A stretch of DNA of 64,000 bases from an uncultured Candidatus Saccharibacteria bacterium (GTDB lineage Bacteria; Patescibacteriota; Minisyncoccia; Phycocordibacterales; DATDWN01), in the NCBI GenBank assembly GCA_964391455.1, contig CAYMJQ010000002.1:12688-76687 (forward strand), read 5' to 3'. Below are positions 1,359 to 56,632 of the stretch, one piece after another; position 1 is the first letter of the stretch; every line of letters begins with the position of its first letter. The position numbers and the translations under genes were made by a program. The notes beneath the pieces were generated by a model, which saw only the letters and a program-made list of their open reading frames with translations, ran no database searches and was not told where the DNA came from.

Positions 1359-2597
1359 TTATTTGGTCAAATCTAAGCTCCACAAAGATCCATCTCTTTT
1401 ATTTATAAACACTAAAAACTGTTCGTTTGTTGAAAGTATAGGTTTTATTACATCTATCGCTTCACCCCCCTCTGATTCAAGGTTTGAAATTATTTGGGAA
1501 GTTAAGTTTAGAGTATCAAATACCCAAACATCATCACTATATTGAACCAAACCTTTATACCAATTTGTTAGACTTCCACTCCTTATTACATCCCTAGGTA
1601 CTGCACAGTATATTATGTTTGTGTCTTCGTTACTCCAAACACATTTTTCTGGAAATGTTTCTGGGGTTAAGAGACTGTTTGTTTTCTGGTTGTTATCGTA
1701 TAAAAACATATTAAATTCTGATCCTTGTCTTAAATATAAAATCTTTGAAGCATTATTATTTACCAAAGAAGAAAGACCTTTTATGTTGCCTAGTATTTTT
1801 CTAAAAGAAGCGTTTGTTACATCCAAAAAATACAAGAACCCGTCAGTTCCCTCTTCTGGTTTTGTGTTTAGTGCAACAATTCTAGAGTTAACGTATTGAG
1901 AATTAAATTCTTTTACAGGAGAGTTAATTACTAGTATTCTGTTTCCACCACTAAAATTTGATGTGTACCCAATAGAACCATTTTGACTTTTCTCTATATA
2001 AAATACACTATTGTTAAAAACAGATAAATCATAAATGTTTGCCGGGAATGCTATTCCAGATACAGTATTTTCAGTAGTGGTGCTTATCTCTCCAAGTGTT
2101 ATAGAAAAAGTATCTACAGTTTCATCATCATCTTTCAAGTATCTTGCCATTATGGAATTTCCATTATTTCCCCAGACAGCATCATAAATTCTTGGTATTG
2201 TTGTATTAGATATCCTGCCTTGTCTTGGAGAGAACAATTCTACCTCAAATATGTGTCCGGTAGCTTTTTCTATATAACGAACTATCGTCCCTGCTCTTAT
2301 ATCCAAAACTCCTGCCCCAGCTACAGGTTCAGAAGATATTTTTCTCAGTCTTTTTTGGAAATCCGTATTTTCCTCTTCGTCTATTATTGGATTTTCTTCT
2401 GGAAAATTATTATTATCTATTAATCCACCATCTTCACCCCCGAATGGGAAAAAGTTTTTAAATACATTTGTGATACCCCCATCTGTTTGGGGATTTCTTG
2501 TTCTTGTAAAATAATACCCTATAAGTACAGCAAGTATTATGCTTAGTACAACAAATATTATAATGTAGGTTTTTTTTGACATGATTTTTAAGTGCAA
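1359..2597 (-). CDS. hypothetical N-terminally anchored exported protein, last gene of the T4SS-like operon
   Basis: A 412-aa protein with a single N-terminal TM helix followed by a Ser/Thr/Asn-rich extracytoplasmic domain. Its start overlaps the stop of the upstream gene (2588/2597), indicating translational coupling. Confidence 0.5.
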   Translation of the reverse strand: MHLKIMSKKTYIIIFVVLSIILAVLIGYYFTRTRNPQTDGGITNVFKNFFPFGGEDGGLIDNNNFPEENPIIDEEENTDFQKRLRKISSEPVAGAGVLDIRAGTIVRYIEKATGHIFEVELFSPRQGRISNTTIPRIYDAVWGNNGNSIMARYLKDDDETVDTFSITLGEISTTTENTVSGIAFPANIYDLSVFNNSVFYIEKSQNGSIGYTSNFSGGNRILVINSPVKEFNSQYVNSRIVALNTKPEEGTDGFLYFLDVTNASFRKILGNIKGLSSLVNNNASKILYLRQGSEFNMFLYDNNQKTNSLLTPETFPEKCVWSNEDTNIIYCAVPRDVIRSGSLTNWYKGLVQYSDDVWVFDTLNLTSQIISNLESEGGEAIDVIKPILSTNEQFLVFINKRDGSLWSLDLTK

Positions 2598-3553
2598 GAA
2601 TTAGGTGCATTTACCTGATAATTATATACTGAAAAATGAGGTGCTGTTATTCTCGGTCTACCTGTTTGTGGGTCAGGTCCTATAACACGTATCGGTCCCC
2701 TATATGGAACAAAAGGTGTACCATCAGGGTTTCTTCTCGGTGTTCTACCATCAATATTTACTGTACTTATTAGATTCCGACACTCTTCAAATGTTGCTAC
2801 TTCAAATACCGGATACATATTACTTTGTCTAGCTTTTTCATAAAAATTATTTAAACCAGAAGGAGATCTGTCTATCGGGTTTCCGTCAATACAAGTCCCA
2901 TTACTATGACAACCAGATTGGTGTTGTACCGTTTGATTATAACCACCTTCCGTTATATACCAAGTACCTTCCCCCATTAATGCGTGGAAATTTTGAAGAT
3001 TTTGCATCATTCCTGCTGATACCCCAGAGTGAGATGCTCTAAGAGCGGGTAATCCTGATCCAGCAAAAGGAACACATCCACCAGGGCACCCAGTCGGTGG
3101 TATAACAGGGATTACAGGTGAATCTGTCGGCTCGACAGTAGGTCTTTCTATAAGAATATTAAAGCTTAGTATCTGGGGGTTTATTGTATTAAGAATAACA
3201 TATGAACCTATCACCAAAAGCAATCCTAGAACCGCATTTTCTATGTATTCTCTTCCTTGTTGTTTGCCACTTAAAGCGTCAGATGTTGCATATAGAACAC
3301 CACCTAATGTAATAAAAATAAAAGCCAAAGCAACAGCAATTCCAACAGTTAAATTAAACGCTGCTGGCAGGTAGGTACTAAGGTTTGTTCTTCCGTTTTC
3401 AGCACCTATACCTGGAAGAGGTGCTATAACCTCATAATCTCTTGGTCCTGTTGGCTCTGTTTGTGCAAAAGAAAAAGAAAACAAACTAAAAAACAAAAAA
3501 ACAGCTATAAATATTTTTATAAAAAAACTTTTTTTTGTTAAATTATTTTTCAT
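2588..3553 (-). CDS. VirB2/TrbC-like pilin-type membrane hairpin fused to a Cys-rich C-terminal domain
   Basis: Signal peptide, then two hydrophobic helices separated by a short loop (…LPAAFNLTVGIAVALAFIFITLGG…GLLLVIGSYVILNTI…), as in the T4SS pilin architecture. A ~180-aa Cys/Gly/Pro-rich soluble domain follows. Confidence 0.45.
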   Translation of the reverse strand: MKNNLTKKSFFIKIFIAVFLFFSLFSFSFAQTEPTGPRDYEVIAPLPGIGAENGRTNLSTYLPAAFNLTVGIAVALAFIFITLGGVLYATSDALSGKQQGREYIENAVLGLLLVIGSYVILNTINPQILSFNILIERPTVEPTDSPVIPVIPPTGCPGGCVPFAGSGLPALRASHSGVSAGMMQNLQNFHALMGEGTWYITEGGYNQTVQHQSGCHSNGTCIDGNPIDRSPSGLNNFYEKARQSNMYPVFEVATFEECRNLISTVNIDGRTPRRNPDGTPFVPYRGPIRVIGPDPQTGRPRITAPHFSVYNYQVNAPNSCT

Positions 3554-10882: not shown

Positions 10883-12574
10883 TTATATTGGTCTAAATAT
10901 TGCCCAAACAGAACCATCAGCAGATACGATTCCAGAACAAGTTGGCTGTGTTCCAAATACCGCACAAGCTCCACCCCAACCAACAAAAGTGTGACCTATG
11001 CCTGGTGTTGCTGATATAGACTGGTGTGATCCTCTAGGATAGACTTTTGATATTGTTGTTGAAGCCATAGTAACTGAATTCAACTCATCTACTCCGTCGC
11101 TCAATGATCCTACACCTGAAACAGTAAATGTAACTGTGTATGTTCCAACACCTGGAAGAGGTGTTGGTGGTGCTGGGTTTTCGTGTCCGGCTGGGTTTCT
11201 GTTACAAGCACACTCAACCAACCAACCCCAACCACCTTCTGCTATAGAGTATTCACCGTCCGGACCTTCATTTCCAACAGCACCAATCATTACATCTACA
11301 ATCATTCCATTACCAAAATTAAACTTATCTAATCTTATTGGGTGTTCCATTAATTCTCCTCCAAATCTACTACTAATTATCGGAGCTGCTTGTCGCATAC
11401 CGTAATTAGAAGCGGGATAACCATTTAATACAGATAAAACAGCACTACTACTTACTGTTGTACAATCTACGTTTGGATCTGGTGTGTATGCTGGACAATG
11501 ACCACCACTTCCTCCACCAGCTCCTAGTGGCCAAGGAGGAAGACCTCCAACTGTTCCTGGGGTGCTTCTGCAGTTTGCTTGTCCACCATCTCCACCCCCA
11601 CCCCCACCATCTGGGTCACCACCATCTCCACCACTTCCACCTGTTGCTGTACAGTTTATGGATGGAGCCGTTGCTGTGATCCGGTAATTTGTTATTGGTT
11701 GTTGTTCATCTCTTAAACTATTAGTAAAAACTCTTCCGGAAGCATCTCTTTCACTTGAAGTAAATAAACTTCCAGCGCCCCCAACTATTTTTTCTACCAA
11801 TTGTGTAAGCAAGGCAGTAACTATTTCATTGAATTCATCAGCTGCATTTAATCTTTCCCAACTTGAACCAAGACTTCTTGATAATTGATCGTTTATAAGG
11901 ACCCCAGGGGTGGTTGTTATTTCTTCTTGAGTACATATTGTTTGTTGAGATATTGGATCAATCACCTCTGCGCCTCTAGGACATCTTTTTACGTTTAGAA
12001 AACCACCACTTAAATCTAATTCTCTTTGTCTTGTGGCTTGAGCTGCACTTATTCTCATAGATAAAGTGTTTTGGGCTTCGAGGTATGCTCCATAAGGGTT
12101 GTTTTGAGAGTTTTGAGTTAATTCAAACCATCCCTGCCAACCACCCTGAGAGAAATCTCTGGTAAAAGCCTCATAATTATTTCTAAGTATATCTAGTGTA
12201 CAGGTGTAATTCGTGGTGTCTGGGTTTATATAATTTTTAACCAAAGCCAGTCTTACTTGGGCGTTAAACGGTGCACATAATTGATTTACTCCTGCTTGAG
12301 ATAAGAAAGCGGAAGCAGTTTCGTCTCCTATATCTAAGAAAAATTGTCTAGGATTCTGTACATATAGAGGGTTTCCTTTAAAACCAGAGTTGATCCAGTT
12401 TACTGTTGTGGCGGTAAGTCTTTTTAATGCTATGGCTGAAACTTGGTAAGCAACTCCATCAAGGGCGAATTCTTTTAAATTTTGAGCAATATCTACATAC
12501 TGTGCGTTGGTTTTTACTGGAGAAGATAATGATAATAGTGATGCCATTATCATTATTAATAAAGTTTTTTTCAT
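10883..12574 (-). CDS. secreted Gly/Cys-rich protein (T4SS-locus)
   Basis: A 563-aa protein with a signal peptide. It has a poly-Gly/Asp tract (GGSGGDGGDPDGGGGGGDGG) and many Cys in the C-terminal half. Confidence 0.5.
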   Translation of the reverse strand: MKKTLLIMIMASLLSLSSPVKTNAQYVDIAQNLKEFALDGVAYQVSAIALKRLTATTVNWINSGFKGNPLYVQNPRQFFLDIGDETASAFLSQAGVNQLCAPFNAQVRLALVKNYINPDTTNYTCTLDILRNNYEAFTRDFSQGGWQGWFELTQNSQNNPYGAYLEAQNTLSMRISAAQATRQRELDLSGGFLNVKRCPRGAEVIDPISQQTICTQEEITTTPGVLINDQLSRSLGSSWERLNAADEFNEIVTALLTQLVEKIVGGAGSLFTSSERDASGRVFTNSLRDEQQPITNYRITATAPSINCTATGGSGGDGGDPDGGGGGGDGGQANCRSTPGTVGGLPPWPLGAGGGSGGHCPAYTPDPNVDCTTVSSSAVLSVLNGYPASNYGMRQAAPIISSRFGGELMEHPIRLDKFNFGNGMIVDVMIGAVGNEGPDGEYSIAEGGWGWLVECACNRNPAGHENPAPPTPLPGVGTYTVTFTVSGVGSLSDGVDELNSVTMASTTISKVYPRGSHQSISATPGIGHTFVGWGGACAVFGTQPTCSGIVSADGSVWAIFRPI

Positions 12575-12681: not shown

Positions 12682-13497
12682 TTAAGCGTTCCTTATCAGA
12701 AAGTCATTCATTTTAGTTAGTATGTTTATAAAAATAGATGAATTTTGGGTGTAATTACCAAATGCATCAAAAAGTCTTATAGGGTCATCTAATCCAATCT
12801 TCATATTTTCTAAATTAAACAATATTGCAGAGGATATATTTAATAACTCTAAGTGTACAGAAATAGCTTTTTCAGGCACCTCCATGTTCAGTAGATATTT
12901 TATAGTTGATTTGTTGATTGTAATTACAGAGTCAAGTTTCTTTAATTCTTCCTTATTTTCTGTACTTACAGCATTTGCAAATACTAAAATAGGATCATCA
13001 TAGATACTATAGTATATAGGTTGTATTGCTTCGTTTACACCCTCTTTGTATCTTTTCATTGTTTCAGAATCTGATTTTGTTGTAACTTTTAGGTTTTGTC
13101 TTATGTATGTTACTGGTTTTTGGTTGTATTCAGGAGAAGAAAGGGTTTTGGCCGCTATTTCAAAAGCTTTTTCTTCGGTGATTTGTTCGCCATTTCTAAC
13201 AGTTAGTAAATATTGAGATAGGAAATCTCTAGAAAGTTGATCTGTTAATGTCGCTCCTTCAGTTTCAGTTAAGTCCAAAGTTAGGTTTTGAAATGGGGTT
13301 TTTTGTTCAACAGTACTTAGAATTTTTTTCCAATCAACATCGGAGTTTTCTTTTGTTTGTATTGCAGGCATCAATGTTCCACCATCATCGTTTTTTATAG
13401 TAATTTTTTCATTATTTAAATTTTTATTAGACAACCAAACAGAAACAACTAGACCTAAACATAATATAAAAGTAGCTATAATTTTATTATTAGGCAT
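12682..13497 (-). CDS. N-terminally anchored hypothetical protein
   Basis: A 271-aa protein with one N-terminal TM helix and no recognised domain. It is the first gene downstream of the UbiA-fusion gene and may mark the operon start. Confidence 0.45.
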   Translation of the reverse strand: MPNNKIIATFILCLGLVVSVWLSNKNLNNEKITIKNDDGGTLMPAIQTKENSDVDWKKILSTVEQKTPFQNLTLDLTETEGATLTDQLSRDFLSQYLLTVRNGEQITEEKAFEIAAKTLSSPEYNQKPVTYIRQNLKVTTKSDSETMKRYKEGVNEAIQPIYYSIYDDPILVFANAVSTENKEELKKLDSVITINKSTIKYLLNMEVPEKAISVHLELLNISSAILFNLENMKIGLDDPIRLFDAFGNYTQNSSIFINILTKMNDFLIRNA

Positions 13498-23226: not shown

Positions 23227-23255
23227 TTGACAAAATACATTTTTAGGTGTATAAT
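23227..23255 (+). promoter_or_regulatory. consensus sigma70 promoter TTGACA-17-TATAAT driving the GC-rich mini-gene
   Basis: The sequence ttgacaaaatacatttttaggtgtataat is followed by the SD aggaggtg (23263-23270). Confidence 0.55.
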
Positions 23256-23274
23256 TTACGTTAGGAGGTGCCAA

Positions 23275-23511
23275 ATGGCACAGGTGCAGCAGCTCGTTTT
23301 CGCCATCATGGTTATGTTTGTGGTGGCGACTGGGATTTCCGTCATGATTGGCGGGCTTCCCTTGGCTGGTCGACTCTGGAGGTCGGCCAGCAACCTGATC
23401 CGCCGACAGGTGGTCAGGTCTCTCGGATGGCTCTGGCGGAACTACCGCCGGGAAATCATTGGGTTCTGGGTGGGTGTTGCCACCACCCTGTTCGTTTTTG
23501 GACGCTTCTAG
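23275..23511 (+). CDS. GC-rich foreign-looking small membrane protein (78 aa, two TM helices, Arg-rich loop)
   Basis: An ATG lies 5 nt after the AGGAGGTG SD. The product is MAQVQQLVFAIMVMFVVATGISVMIGGLPLAGRLWRSASNLIRRQVVRSLGWLWRNYRREIIGFWVGVATTLFVFGRF. GC content is far above the flanks. A hairpin plus T-run overlaps the stop codon. The overlapping track ORF 23268..23543 is an alternative frame of the same GC-rich block. Confidence 0.5.
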   Translation: MAQVQQLVFAIMVMFVVATGISVMIGGLPLAGRLWRSASNLIRRQVVRSLGWLWRNYRREIIGFWVGVATTLFVFGRF

Positions 23512-23543
23512 AAATTTTAGGAGCGTTCTTTTTTATATCTTGA

Positions 23544-23582
23544 AAAATATTTTGCGATTATTTTAGTTTCGCAAAATATTTT
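23544..23582. promoter_or_regulatory. 14-bp perfect inverted repeat (AAAATATTTTGCGA…TCGCAAAATATTTT) upstream of xerC, candidate operator
   Basis: The repeat is visible in the sequence. Nearby TGCGACA-like repeats and an extended -10 (tgtgttataat) lie at about 23638. Confidence 0.35.
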
Positions 23583-23685
23583 CAGATTATGCGACAAGTA
23601 ATCTTGTTTGTATAACCTATATTGTGCGACATTGTGTTATAATTTCATCTAACAACTATAAAATGATAACTAGAAACTTTACCTC

Positions 23686-24615
23686 ATGGCTTCACTAAAA
23701 CAACTTAAACAACAATTTTTAGAATATGTTGAGATAGAAAGAGGTCGTTCTGTGAAAACAATAGAGAATTACGACCATTACCTATCGGTTTTTCTTGAAT
23801 TTTTAAAAAAAGATAAGCCTGAAGACATAACAGATGAAAATGTAAGGATGTTTCGTCTCTGGCTTAACCGTCGTCCTGTTGGTAAACATGGTCAAACAGT
23901 AACCAGAAAGACTCAGAACTATTATCTCATTGCCCTAAGGGCATTTTTGAAGTATCTAGCTAGGCAAGAGATAAAAACAATGCCAGCAGAAAGAATAGAG
24001 TTGGCGAAAACAACTGAAAGGTCTTTGGATTTAATAACCCAAGAAGAATTAAATAGGATTTTAGAGGCGCCCAATGGAAATGATGAAAAATCTTTAAGAG
24101 ATAAGGCTATACTAGAGCTTCTTTTTTCTACAGGTCTTCGTGTGTCGGAGCTATGTTCCCTACCTCGTGATATAAATCTTCGTTCGGATGAGCTTTCTGT
24201 GAAAGGTAAGGGTGGAAAAATAAGGGTAGTATTTTTATCAGAAGAAGCCAAAAGGTGTGTAAAAAATTATTTAGACAAAAGAAAAGATATGAACGACGGC
24301 CTTTTTGTGAGAATAAATCAAGATTTAGATAAAAAAGGTTCTAAAACAACAACAATAGATAAAAAAAATAATCTAGATAGAAGGTCTATAGAAAGAATAG
24401 TCAGGCATTACGCGATAAAAGCTGGTGTGTCTAAAAAAGTTACTCCTCATACATTAAGACATTTGTTTGCAACAGATTTACTTTCTAACGGAGCTGATTT
24501 GCGTTCAGTACAAGCACTTTTGGGTCACTCAAGTATTTCTACAACTCAAATATATACACATGTCACAGATAAACACCTGCGTGAAGTTCACAAAAAATTC
24601 CATAAAAAAAGTTAA
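23686..24615 (+). CDS. xerC: tyrosine site-specific recombinase XerC/XerD family
   Basis: The C-terminal catalytic motif HTLRHLFATDLL…LLGHSSISTTQIYTHV and an N-terminal SAM-like domain. Confidence 0.85.
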   Translation: MASLKQLKQQFLEYVEIERGRSVKTIENYDHYLSVFLEFLKKDKPEDITDENVRMFRLWLNRRPVGKHGQTVTRKTQNYYLIALRAFLKYLARQEIKTMPAERIELAKTTERSLDLITQEELNRILEAPNGNDEKSLRDKAILELLFSTGLRVSELCSLPRDINLRSDELSVKGKGGKIRVVFLSEEAKRCVKNYLDKRKDMNDGLFVRINQDLDKKGSKTTTIDKKNNLDRRSIERIVRHYAIKAGVSKKVTPHTLRHLFATDLLSNGADLRSVQALLGHSSISTTQIYTHVTDKHLREVHKKFHKKS

Positions 24616-25430: not shown

Positions 25431-25554
25431 TTATCCACAATATTTTTATAAAATGTCCTTTACATATTTTTATAAAAGACATAAACTTATTTCAGAACGC
25501 AGATTAAATGTCCGATACAATAAACCCTGTATTGGATTGACGTTCTGTAATAGT

Positions 25555-25785
25555 TCTTTTTTTTGGGAATCGGCCGAATTCCTCTCTTTTAGAAGACCCC
25601 CTGGTCTTCCCTGGGAAAGAGTGTAAACGAGCTCCTCACTATCTACTATATTTTTTTGAGCATTCGTTACTACCCCCTGCCCTAGTAAGTACTGGGTGGC
25701 CCTTCTCCAAACTACGCACATTTGTGCGCCCAACAGTCCCTAGATTTGCCTTCGTGAGATGGCTCTCTAATTGGGGCTGTTTTTT
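25555..25785. ncRNA. candidate structured small RNA in a GC-elevated convergent intergenic region (identity unresolved)
   Basis: A ~230-bp block is clearly richer in G+C than its surroundings. It lies between the 3' ends of xth and cca and has several local hairpins. Only spurious ORFs cover it. Confidence 0.25.
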
Positions 25786-27250
25786 ATTGTACGTAATGTT
25801 TTTTTCTAATTTTCTTTATTTCTATTTCATCCACTTCTTCCTTTATCATTTTCCCCTTTTCTCCTAATTCCCTTAATTTATTTTCTGGTAATTCCAACAT
25901 TTCTAAAGCTCTTTTTTCCATATATTCATCTGTGTTTTTACTAGGGTCCTCTAATACTTCTTCAAGAAGTGCGTGTAAAACAAAACCAACTTTCGGTCCA
26001 GGAGGAATTTTGCCTATTTCTATAATTTTTTTACCATCAATATTAAGCATTCCTACAGAAATCGGGTCACGGAGAGCTTCTTCAATCATTGAATGATATT
26101 TTCTGAGACGATAGGGGTCTTCTTTGGGTCTACCAGCTCCTATACGATCGCATATGCGTAGATTCATTAAATCCCATATATTTTCTCGTCCAACATTTAC
26201 AATCATTCTACGGACCGCAGAGAGCGTAATTTGCTCTGTGTCAGAGAAAAACATATGCCAGCGTATCATGGAAACAACTTTATCAATGATTTTTGTAGGA
26301 TATTTTAAATTTTCAAGAATTTTTTTAGTTTTTCTTGCTCCAAGAACTTCATGGCCAAAGAAAGTCCATTTTTTATTTTTCCCACCACCTCTTCTTGTTT
26401 CTGGTTTAGAAATATCATGAAAAAGTGCAGAAAGCCTTATTTCTAAAGGGTAATTTTTATCAGCTGAATGCTGTAGTGATCTAAGTAAGTGCTCCCAAAC
26501 ATCATAAGCATGTACTCCCCCTTGTTCCACCCCTACGGTTTCTAGTAGTTCAGGTGAAATATACTCTAGTAAGTTAAGTTTTTTAAGCATCAAAAGTCCC
26601 TTCATTGGGTTATCTGACATTACTATTCTAGTGAATTCATCTCTTATTCTTTCCTTTGATATATTTTTTAACAAAGATGAGCTTTCTAACATAGCTTTTT
26701 CAGTTTCTGGATGAATTTCAAAACTTAACTCAACAGAAAGTCTAATTCCCCTAATTATTCTAAGTCCATCTTCATTAAATCTTGATACAGGATCTCCTAC
26801 AGTTCTTATTAATTTGTCTTTTAAATCTTTTTCTCCACCATAAAGGTCAATAAATTCATTTTTAGATGTCGAATAGGCTAACGCATTCACAGTGAAATCT
26901 CTCCTTTTTAGGTCATCTTCTATTTTTTGGCTAAAAATAACGTTATTAGGATGCCTATTATCCAAATACTCCCCTTCTAATCTATACGGAGTTACCTCTA
27001 CCACTTTCAATGTTTCTTTTTCTACATTTTCATTTACAACTCCTACTGTACCAAAGGTATTTTCATAAAAAGTATTTGGGAACGAGGCTATTATCTGTTC
27101 TGGATTAGCATTTGTTGTTATATCCCAATCCTTCGGTTCCCTATCAAGCATAAGATCTCTCACGCAACCACCAACAAGAAAAGCTTCAAAGCCTTCTTTT
27201 TCTAGTTTTTTCGTTATGTTAGTTATTTCTTTTGGAATATTTAGTTTCAT
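25784..27250 (-). CDS. cca: CCA-adding tRNA nucleotidyltransferase / poly(A) polymerase family with HD domain
   Basis: An N-terminal GGCVRDLMLDREPKDWDITT nucleotidyltransferase head and a C-terminal HD domain. Confidence 0.8.
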   Translation of the reverse strand: MKLNIPKEITNITKKLEKEGFEAFLVGGCVRDLMLDREPKDWDITTNANPEQIIASFPNTFYENTFGTVGVVNENVEKETLKVVEVTPYRLEGEYLDNRHPNNVIFSQKIEDDLKRRDFTVNALAYSTSKNEFIDLYGGEKDLKDKLIRTVGDPVSRFNEDGLRIIRGIRLSVELSFEIHPETEKAMLESSSLLKNISKERIRDEFTRIVMSDNPMKGLLMLKKLNLLEYISPELLETVGVEQGGVHAYDVWEHLLRSLQHSADKNYPLEIRLSALFHDISKPETRRGGGKNKKWTFFGHEVLGARKTKKILENLKYPTKIIDKVVSMIRWHMFFSDTEQITLSAVRRMIVNVGRENIWDLMNLRICDRIGAGRPKEDPYRLRKYHSMIEEALRDPISVGMLNIDGKKIIEIGKIPPGPKVGFVLHALLEEVLEDPSKNTDEYMEKRALEMLELPENKLRELGEKGKMIKEEVDEIEIKKIRKKHYVQ

Positions 27251-49080: not shown

Positions 49081-49174
49081 GTTATTGATTTATTTATATT
49101 TTACTTTATAGTTGTGGAAGGGTTCTTTGACTACCACCTGCCTGTGGCAGACTGGTAATTGTTAGGAGACTGCC

Positions 49175-49780
49175 ATGAGCACCTCATTTCGTCAGGTAGT
49201 GAAGATTGCGAATACTCTGGAAGAGAAAGGGCTAACACCCGAACTCATCCAGTCTGAGCTTTTGGGTAGGGGAATTCTCGCAGATATCGCCGAGGCGGTG
49301 GTTCTTGGAACTGTGCCTAATCGCCGAGAGTTTCAGAAGTTTCTCGGAATTTTACCACCCCCTATTCCTCTCCTCGTCGACTACACGATGAGCCTCACCA
49401 AGATGATCTCAGCAGGAAAGTACGACCGTAAGAACTCAAACGTGAATAACAAGAACTTTCCCCGCACCAAGTCGGGGAAGTTCACGGTGGAGGTAGAGCT
49501 TCTACAAATATATCGGCAAACCTATTCGGAGAGCGTTCTCGTCGAGATGTTGAAACTCGGTTTCCGTCCGGCGACTCTGGAAGAACTCCTCTCATTCGGA
49601 GTCACAAACCCAGAAGTTCAGAGAGAGTTCCCTGTGGTTGCTCTCGGATCATCCTGTGTTCTGGATGGCGTTCGCCACGTTCCGTACCTAAGTGGGGACA
49701 ATTTGGAGCGCGACCTTGACCTGGACTGGTTCGCCAGCTGCTGGGGTCGCGGTTATCAGTTCCTCGTCGTTCGCAAGTGA
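49175..49780 (+). CDS. GC-rich foreign-looking hypothetical protein (201 aa)
   Basis: It is preceded by an AGGAG SD 6 nt before the ATG and a palindrome ctgccTGTggcag. Its composition is strongly GC-shifted. A UUCG-tetraloop hairpin (cctcgagtgg-ttcg-ccactcgagg) follows the stop. I recognise no domain. Confidence 0.5.
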   Translation: MSTSFRQVVKIANTLEEKGLTPELIQSELLGRGILADIAEAVVLGTVPNRREFQKFLGILPPPIPLLVDYTMSLTKMISAGKYDRKNSNVNNKNFPRTKSGKFTVEVELLQIYRQTYSESVLVEMLKLGFRPATLEELLSFGVTNPEVQREFPVVALGSSCVLDGVRHVPYLSGDNLERDLDLDWFASCWGRGYQFLVVRK

Positions 49781-49884
49781 TCTTTTGACCTTTGTTTCTG
49801 TGACTGTACTCTGTGCCTTGTCACTTAGACACTTGGTCCCTCCTCGAGTGGTTCGCCACTCGAGGAGTTATTGTATACAAAAAG

Positions 49885-56096: not shown

Positions 56097-56136
56097 CATT
56101 TTTATAAAAGATATTAACATTTTTTTTGGAGGTAAG

Positions 56137-56334
56137 ATGAAGCACACCCTTCTTTGGGTTCGTGGTGGGGCGGAGGAAGTGGAACTTCCTTTTTCCGCTT
56201 CTCCGAGTGACGCGATGCCTCTGGCGAGGCGTCATGTTGAGAACTTGTCGCAGTCGACGGTGCCTTTGTCGAACTTCCGGCTTCGGATGCCGGATGGTCG
56301 CGAGGTGCCGATCGACCCCAAGAAGAAGCACTAG
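56137..56334 (+). CDS. GC-rich foreign-looking small protein (65 aa)
   Basis: A GGAGG SD 4 nt upstream. The product is MKHTLLWVRGGAEEVELPFSASPSDAMPLARRHVENLSQSTVPLSNFRLRMPDGREVPIDPKKKH. A perfect terminator follows. Confidence 0.4.
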   Translation: MKHTLLWVRGGAEEVELPFSASPSDAMPLARRHVENLSQSTVPLSNFRLRMPDGREVPIDPKKKH

Positions 56335-56350
56335 TACCAACTAGTGTAAA

Positions 56351-56388
56351 CAGCCAAATCCTGAAAACCAGGATTTGGCTGTTTTTTC
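56351..56388 (+). terminator. perfect intrinsic terminator
   Basis: The sequence cagccaaatcctg-aaaac-caggatttggctg is followed by tttttt. Confidence 0.7.
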
Positions 56389-56422
56389 TTTTTTTGTGTT
56401 ATATTGTTTTCCGGAGGATTTT

Positions 56423-56626
56423 ATGAGGGAAAATTGTTACGAGCTTCGCTGGCGGGTTGGTCAGGAGAAGATAAAGACGGGGTTTATGAATTTTTTTGGG
56501 GAGAAAGAAAAAGTTCTTCCTGAGGCAAGGGAAGTCGCCCAGAGGATTCATGGAAGAAATCCACTCATGAAGGATTTCTCTCTTCGAGGACCATGGGGAG
56601 AGGAAACTCCGATTTCTGTAAGCTAG
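56423..56626 (+). CDS. GC-shifted small protein (67 aa), second cistron of the cassette
   Basis: A GGAGGA SD 6 nt upstream. The product is MRENCYELRWRVGQEKIKTGFMNFFGEKEKVLPEAREVAQRIHGRNPLMKDFSLRGPWGEETPISVS. Confidence 0.4.
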   Translation: MRENCYELRWRVGQEKIKTGFMNFFGEKEKVLPEAREVAQRIHGRNPLMKDFSLRGPWGEETPISVS

Positions 56627-56632
56627 CTTTAG

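Follow-up and report, generated by a model that had tools for sequence, protein, structure and literature searches.

What is encoded in the short GC-rich island between rpsO and xerC in contig CAYMJQ010000002.1 of an uncultured Candidatus Saccharibacteria bacterium (GenBank assembly GCA_964391455.1)? We analyzed the 64,000 nucleotides around this locus (positions 12,688 to 76,687 of the contig, forward strand), which we will call the window; coordinates below are those of the window. The island is sharp: its open reading frame (ORF) has a GC content of 0.58, versus 0.33 for the 64-kb window. An earlier note had placed a small gene for a membrane protein here, had compared the product to holins and toxins, and had viewed the gene as inserted between its neighbors. 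We think that the island is very probably a compact, monocistronic gene of about 275 nt (a promoter, an ORF of 78 codons behind a leader of about 13 nt, and a terminator), and that it encodes a resident small membrane protein. In kind this is ordinary: it is a new family of small membrane proteins.

Two frames are open across the island. One is the 78-codon frame, which extends to 111 amino acids from an upstream TTG. The other begins with a GTG and encodes 91 amino acids, and this is the frame that is annotated in the NCBI record, a contig of 89.7 kb, and in Logan SRR15237806. To compare the frames, we used the closest pair of orthologues (from loci that we label L014 and L020), which are 86% identical. 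In the 78-codon frame, these two genes differ at 7, 6, and 20 sites in codon positions 1, 2, and 3, and the ratio of nonsynonymous to synonymous substitution rates (dN/dS, or omega) is 0.18. In the other two frames, omega is 2.2 and 2.5, and one of those frames holds a stop. GC content by codon position (GC1/GC2/GC3) is 0.57/0.44/0.73 for the 78-codon frame, which is the order expected of coding sequence (GC3 > GC1 > GC2), as against 0.67/0.54/0.41 for the 91-codon frame. Together with the homologues described below, these comparisons indicate that the 78-codon ORF, in the frame anchored by the Shine-Dalgarno sequence (SD), is a protein-coding gene under purifying selection, and that the public annotation carries the wrong frame. 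The earlier note had recognized that two frames were open and had chosen this one; the choice is confirmed by the homologues and by the dN/dS of 0.18, and the protein sequence that it quoted matches our ORF.

Could the annotated 91-codon frame be the real gene after all? It is open across the whole GC block and it was chosen by the gene caller in both records, but we find this hardly credible. Its protein cluster is a singleton, without relatives; the predicted protein matches no Pfam family and looks to be of low complexity; GC3 is the lowest of its three codon positions; its GTG start falls within the SD; and the equivalent frame in L014 and L020 is the one that evolves with an omega of 2.5. 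Because the public gene call takes this frame, the 78-amino-acid product is missing from the records, and an exact look-up in a collection of 15 billion proteins returned no record of it.

The 78-amino-acid protein does have relatives. An exhaustive HMMER scan (phmmer) of 1.84 billion representative proteins found seven full-length homologues of 75-98 amino acids, which align end to end with E values from 1.8e-16 to 9e-4; the best of these is 54% identical. A profile search raised the count to 12. (A word-indexed homology search with the single 78-amino-acid sequence found no match.) In our alignment (A3), the members share a first transmembrane helix (TM1), a turn of the G-G-P-P type, a basic amphipathic loop, the motif (R)W-x-W-R-N-Y-R-x-x-I-I-G-F, a second transmembrane helix (TM2), and a C-terminal G-R-(F/L). 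G20 and W54 are invariant. We also scanned 185,579 GTDB species-representative genomes with a narrow pattern, built from 6 sequences, that misses members of the W-A-W-Q-G-Y type. The only match was in a metagenome-assembled genome of Candidatus Zambryskibacteria (Parcubacteria, in the candidate phyla radiation or CPR). Searches of Pfam, NCBIfam, PHROGs, PADLOC, and PDB sequences gave no significant family for the protein, and a search of the literature on Zambryskibacteria, on small membrane proteins or GC content in the CPR, and on DUF2273 found nothing relevant. The family is rare, previously unannotated, and found in Zambryskibacteria-like bacteria.

The gene's neighborhood is conserved as well. 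The window's neighboring genes are rpsO, a gene with an NYN domain, xerC, and an exonuclease III-like gene. Among the homologues whose genomic context could be retrieved, seven independent ones have rpsO on one side, in the divergent orientation, and an xerC-like gene on the other, in the same direction as the family gene; the loci with this arrangement are L006-L010, L011, L012/L013, L014, L020, L021, and the window. The proteins encoded on the flanks of the related loci are 71-83% identical to the window's, and several of these loci also share genes for NYN, DksA/TraR, and ComM/Mg-chelatase-like proteins beyond rpsO. Between L014 and L020, the synonymous divergence (dS) is 0.42 for the family gene and 0.42 for rpsO. 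As the same gap is occupied in seven homologues and the gene's dS equals that of rpsO, this is a long-standing resident and not a fresh insertion, contrary to the wording of the earlier note. Three members are found at other places: one follows alaS (L002), one belongs to a group of small ORFs (L004), and one sits between clpB and an insertion sequence (IS) transposase (L019). The rpsO-xerC location is typical of the family, but it is not universal.

The features of the locus are listed in Table 1. The perfect TTGACA-17-TATAAT promoter that had been reported is indeed present. Promoter sites that match at 12 of 12 positions are rarer in shuffled sequence than in the 64-kb window (2 observed versus 0.23 expected), but sites that match at 11 or more positions are not enriched over shuffles. 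The SD and the ATG were also as described, except that the spacer between them is 4 nt instead of 5, and the hairpin and run of T that overlap the stop codon were correctly reported. The strongest evidence that these signals exceed chance is their conservation: TTGAC[AT]-17-TAnnnT, GGAG(G) at the same distance, the ATG, and a terminator at the last codons are kept in all of the orthologues and members. The transcript would start at about 23262, giving a leader of only about 13 nt that opens with the SD, and across the family, the spacing of the -10 element and the SD implies leaders of about 13-20 nt. The 5' arm of the terminator is formed by the last codons of the gene (G-R-F-stop), with the same layout in L014, L011, L012, L002, and L019.

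Table 1. Features of the rpsO-xerC gap and the gene within it, in window coordinates.
Feature	Position (strand)	Details or basis
Sigma-70-type promoter	23227..23255 (+)	-35 TTGACA at 23227-23232, 17-nt spacer, -10 TATAAT at 23250-23255; 12/12 consensus match
Shine-Dalgarno AGGAGGTG	23263..23270 (+)	Read from the sequence; 4 nt (ccaa) before the ATG at 23275
Overlapping 91-aa GTG frame, publicly annotated, judged non-coding	23268..23543 (+)	Gene call in NCBI record/L001
Start-codon hairpin GUGCC-AAAU-GGCAC	23268..23281 (+)	Local fold -8.3 kcal/mol; A and U of the AUG in the tetraloop, G paired
Small membrane protein ORF, 78 codons + stop	23275..23511 (+)	Homologues, dN/dS, GC by codon position
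Predicted TM1 (about L7 to L30)	23293..23364 (+)	Hydropathy and alignment A3; ends in GG(P/L)P motif
Arg/Trp-rich amphipathic loop (R33 to E60)	23371..23454 (+)	Net charge +8; maximum hydrophobic moment 0.70
Predicted TM2 (I61 to G76)	23455..23502 (+)	Hydropathy and alignment; conserved IIGFxxGVxxTLfxxG
Intrinsic terminator	23500..23534 (+)	Hairpin 23500-23528, TTTTTT 23529-23534; overlaps TAG stop at 23509-23511

The window's mRNA can also form a hairpin over the start codon. Hairpins with this geometry, and with other stem sequences, are found at 5 of 11 related starts, versus 6% of all ATGs. We have moderate confidence that the recurring hairpin is a feature of the family. In L008, at 60-300 of this locus, the same promoter/SD module drives an extra GC-rich ORF of 60 amino acids (GC3 of 0.70) that precedes the family gene. 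The start-codon hairpin of this extra ORF is GUGGC-UCAU-GCCAC, where the window has GUGCC-AAAU-GGCAC, which is a compensatory swap. A further ORF of 76 amino acids lies downstream in the convergent orientation.

What kind of protein is it? Two hydrophobic helices around an Arg-rich loop had been proposed, and hydropathy and the loop's charge agree with this. The last part of the loop is the conserved W-x-W-R-N-Y-R-R-E motif, and only two residues (R-F) follow TM2, within the family's C-terminal G-R-F/L. Across the family, the loops have 27-40 residues, with net charges of +5 to +14 in 12 of 14 members and hydrophobic moments of up to 0.87. Since the basic residues lie between the helices, the positive-inside rule predicts that the loop is cytoplasmic and that both ends of the protein face outward. 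We propose a helical hairpin in the cytoplasmic membrane: TM1 would be followed by a 28-residue Arg/Trp-rich amphipathic helix on the cytoplasmic face, and this in turn by TM2, which would continue to the C-terminus. The working part is probably the conserved C-terminal module, R-W-A-W-R-N-Y-R-x-x-I-I-G-F-x-x-G-V-x-x-T-L-Y-F-x-G-R, while TM1 and the beginning of the loop vary and seem to have been exchanged between lineages. With low confidence, we suggest an accessory or structural role for this membrane protein, which would be transcribed constitutively and would act through the cationic helix at the membrane interface.

Two Pfam families resemble parts of the protein. The C-terminal segment (Y-R-x-x-I-I-G-x-x-x-G followed by hydrophobic residues) weakly matches DUF2273 (PF10031), a small integral membrane protein, in 4 of 14 members, with a best E value of 0.004; these matches are below the Pfam threshold and cover the C-terminal third only, so homology is not established, and the window's protein itself has no match to DUF2273 at E ≤ 1. 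Similarly, in 9 of 14 members (best E = 0.007), the juxtamembrane motif R-W-x-W-R and the helix that follows weakly match the C-terminal tail anchor of ferlins (PF16165). However, the ferlin tail-anchor family is eukaryotic, and these matches are at the level of a motif and below threshold. The likeness to ferlins is most likely convergent.

The N-terminal part of the protein has a different history from its flanks. The flanking genes pair L011 and L021 as sisters (RpsO is 96% identical and XerC is 83% identical, and they share an inverted operator-like motif), with the window as the outgroup. The types of TM1 and loop cut across this grouping: the window goes with L014 and L020, L008 with L021, L011 with L012, and L004 with L019. 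L021 has an N-terminal part of the L008 type that is joined to a C-terminal part of the L011/L012 type. Nucleotide identity between L011 and L021 is about 90% in the flanks and in the terminator but collapses, with indels, in the first two thirds of the ORF. The N-terminal part is hypervariable and mosaic, a pattern suggesting that recombination has swapped segments of the gene between lineages while the locus stayed in place.

Several points weigh against our interpretation. The family is tiny (about 15 sequences), which makes the conservation statistics thin, and both the start-codon hairpin and the mosaicism come from few independent events. The topology is a prediction from just two sources, hydropathy and the positive-inside rule. 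AlphaFold2, given an alignment of 14 sequences, predicted a single helix of 73 residues (predicted local distance difference test, or pLDDT, of 78; predicted template modeling score, or pTM, of 0.36), which is uninformative about the hairpin. We assigned a function from the architecture, and none of the homologues has been characterized. Also, the strong promoter, the cationic amphipathic segment, the fast evolution, and the sporadic distribution would fit a protein involved in conflict or one of a toxin type.

We considered three other explanations for the island. Structured RNAs classically show up in AT-rich genomes as GC islands that have a promoter and a terminator, so the product here might be a structured non-coding RNA, with an ORF that is incidental because GC-rich sequence lacks stops. 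Besides the promoter, the terminator, and the two open frames, this would explain why the plus strand of the ORF folds so well (z = -5.7 relative to dinucleotide shuffles, or -6.35 with the flanks included, and z = -5.35 relative to synonymous-codon shuffles). But the protein is conserved (recall the 7/6/20 pattern of substitutions and the omega of 0.18), GC3 exceeds GC1 and GC2, the order typical of coding sequence, half of the orthologues have folds no more stable than those of shuffled sequences, the hairpins of the window's copy are weakly retained in the orthologues, and the consensus fold of all ten sequences has z = -0.2. Rfam gave no match at the gathering level, and none within the gene even at E ≤ 1; two matches outside the ORF were at the level of chance. 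We reject this explanation on the codon pattern, the folds of the orthologues, and the consensus fold; it is already largely refuted and we consider it extremely improbable. Across the family, the mean z relative to synonymous-codon shuffles is -1.69 (p = 0.016, from members that are not fully independent), so the family's mRNAs show a tendency to extra stability without a shared fold. The protein might instead be a holin, or a membrane-damaging peptide like a type I toxin, that is restrained by mRNA structure or by an antisense RNA. Its size, its two hydrophobic helices, and its cationic amphipathic Arg/Trp segment fit this idea; so do the very stable mRNA with a hairpin over the start codon and the family's fast evolution, rarity, and several genomic contexts. 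Class II holins have two transmembrane helices, about 65-95 amino acids, and a charged, hydrophilic, cytoplasmic C-terminal tail, with both ends inside. The family protein is like these holins and the pinholins (such as S68 of phage 21) in its size, in its two transmembrane helices, and in having its own strong expression signals. However, TM2 reaches the C-terminus, where holins have their charged tail, and the net charge of +8 sits in the 28-residue loop between the helices, which would put both ends outside, whereas class II holins have both inside. Holins belong to lysis cassettes, while the family gene is conserved beside housekeeping genes, with no endolysin, spanin, or phage genes nearby, and we found no match for the protein in PHROGs, in PADLOC, in phage records (by tblastn), or in a scan of viral contigs. 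Type I toxins (Hok, TisB, Fst, BsrG) are also small, hydrophobic, and cationic, and the window's copy shares with them a structured mRNA, in this case with a start-codon hairpin. But those toxins have one helix, fewer than about 60 amino acids, and a long inhibitory 5' untranslated region (UTR), whereas this protein has two helices and 78 amino acids, and its leader of about 13 nt leaves it without a long structured 5' UTR. Nor did a computational scan show a minus-strand promoter-like site inside the gene; a search for an antisense promoter had been recommended in the earlier note. In L014, L020, L011, and L021, the gap between the gene and xerC is just 66-70 nt and is taken up by the terminator and the promoter of xerC, so there is no room for a partner RNA. 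Finally, the gene is single-copy, syntenic, and vertically co-inherited; purifying selection acts on it, and its dS equals that of rpsO. The resemblance that the earlier note had seen is limited to size and hydrophobicity; membership in the holins or the type I toxins is not supported, and we think it improbable that the protein acts as one.

The remaining explanation is that the island is a recently acquired foreign cassette, of the integron type or the Xer/dif-module type, beside a tyrosine recombinase. This would explain why the island is GC-rich, and its codon usage is 6.8 standard deviations away from that of host genes. Integron cassettes and Xer/dif modules are likewise small, foreign-looking in composition, and next to a gene for a tyrosine recombinase; here the gene adjoins a Xer-type recombinase gene, with conserved TGTGCGACA-type motifs and a perfect 14-nt palindrome just downstream. 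Members also occur at three other kinds of loci, one of them next to an IS transposase, and the N-terminal part does not follow the relationships of the flanking genes. However, integron cassettes are promoterless and are driven from Pc, while the family gene has its own conserved promoter (a 12/12 match in the window) and so is not a promoterless cassette. Integrons use an IntI-type integrase, and the recombinase here is of the Xer type by its NCBIfam scores (144.7 bits for the integron integrase model, versus a cut-off of 265). Across lineages, the position has been kept: it is occupied in 7 of them, with flanking proteins that are 71-83% identical, and the gene's dS equals that of rpsO. No pair of repeats brackets the gene: the only candidate for target duplications or recombination sites was a 17-mer with 76% identity, which we judged to be due to chance. 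On the gene's 3' side, a repeat search (which did not use an attC model) found as inverted repeats only the terminator and a perfect palindrome at 23544-23582, and motifs containing TGCGA are found only downstream (23544-23631), with none upstream of the promoter, although the lineage's own dif sequence is not known. High GC content is a trait of the family irrespective of host GC and is no sign of recent arrival. The data instead support segment exchange between lineages at a fixed locus, and we view a recent foreign cassette as quite unlikely. A resident gene for a small membrane protein remains our preferred explanation.

The region between the terminator and xerC has features of its own. 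The palindrome at 23544-23582 is a perfect 14-nt palindrome, AAAATATTTTGCGA-N11-TCGCAAAATATTTT, and is followed by two direct copies of (A/G)TGCGACA. Just upstream of the -10 element of xerC is TATTGTGCGACA (23620-23631), which is found exactly in all of the syntenic loci and is inverted in L011 and L021. The region of TATTGTGCGACA and the palindrome might serve as an operator, or as a dif-like site that is bound by Xer. The xerC-like recombinase itself (23686-24615) does not reach the NCBIfam cut-offs of the bacterial XerC and XerD models and passes only the archaeal XerA_Arch model (235 bits versus a cut-off of 220), with XerD, XerC, and XerA as its best matches. That it passes only XerA_Arch could mean that the Xer system of this lineage has a single recombinase.

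The unusual aspect of the gene is its composition. At all ten loci, the GC3 of the gene (0.45-0.73) is higher than that of its neighbors (0.21-0.45), and an index like the codon adaptation index gives 0.24 for the window's copy, compared to 0.70 +/- 0.07 for host genes. As the GC3 excess persists across divergent lineages, the mutation bias of the host is being countered. These host-atypical GC-rich codons are found across the family, and they might be kept by selection for mRNA that is stable, structured, or slowly translated, or else by GC-biased gene conversion (gBGC) at a recombining locus. gBGC has been proposed as a general hypothesis for bacteria (PMC4450053). If segments of the gene are exchanged by recombination, then gBGC could add to the GC3 excess, which is speculative.

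Other parts of the window are GC-rich too. The window contains three GC-rich units that encode small proteins, and homologues elsewhere are also GC-rich. The second unit (49130-49870) has an ORF for a protein of 201 amino acids (49175-49780; GC of 0.52 and GC3 of 0.59), followed by a strong GC hairpin. This protein has no Pfam match but has 31 homologues, one of them named as Ca. Uhrbacteria in its source record; the homologue in L022 has a GC content of 0.54, versus 0.38 for its host. The third unit (56100-56630) has ORFs of 65 amino acids (56137-56334) and 67 amino acids (56423-56626). The 65-amino-acid ORF has a promoter, GGAGG, and a 16-bp terminator, is uncalled in public records, and has mRNA that folds better than codon shuffles (z = -2.7). 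Directly after it, the 67-amino-acid ORF is a paralogue with lower GC; they share ...LRW.R.G.E... F.LR.P.G.E.PI. We also considered whether the 60-amino-acid ORF upstream of the family gene in L008, the small ORFs near L004, and the window's third unit are homologous, but comparison does not support this.

Two more regions of the window stand out by their composition. Between the exonuclease III-like gene and the gene for the CCA-adding enzyme (25470-25800), the sequence is moderately GC-rich, reaching 0.53, with only short overlapping ORFs on both strands and no match in Rfam even at E ≤ 1; this could be an unrecognized RNA or another small gene. At 11440-11716, GC content reaches 0.60, with runs of CCACC and CCCCC inside an apparent long coding region on the minus strand, and this is probably a Gly-rich low-complexity segment. 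Outside the window, on the same 193-kb contig as the family member in L002, a gene with an ExbD domain (2574-3050) has a GC3 of 0.60, versus about 0.25-0.30 for its neighbors. So the phenomenon of GC-rich genes is not confined to orphan genes.

What does this gene mean for the biology of these bacteria? We do not see a new kind of system here: apart from its unusual composition, the gene looks ordinary, and nothing but its persistent GC-rich codon usage and its mosaic N-terminal part calls for further study. To our knowledge, the small proteins of CPR bacteria are almost entirely uncharacterized, and here the public genome annotation carries the wrong frame for a conserved family of small membrane proteins from Parcubacteria that has no entry in Pfam, NCBIfam, or PHROGs. 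A GC3 that is about 0.1-0.5 above that of the neighboring genes, in loci whose flanking proteins are 71-83% identical, is hard to square with a simple mutation bias. The 237-nt ORF is therefore a compact test case for distinguishing selection on mRNA stability or translation speed from biased gene conversion in AT-rich, reduced genomes. A broader idea, which we offer tentatively and think is more probably wrong than right, is that the gene exemplifies a wider class: small-protein genes, each specific to a lineage, whose high GC content, deoptimized codons, and strong mRNA folding are actively maintained in the AT-rich genomes of the CPR. In this family, a hypervariable, recombining N-terminal part that is joined to a conserved C-terminal module would then hint at conflict or at partner recognition. 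If this were true, then the GC enrichment would reflect selection on mRNA stability or translation speed, or gBGC at a recombination hot spot, and the family might act, for instance, in immunity or exclusion, or in the contact of an episymbiont with its host cell.

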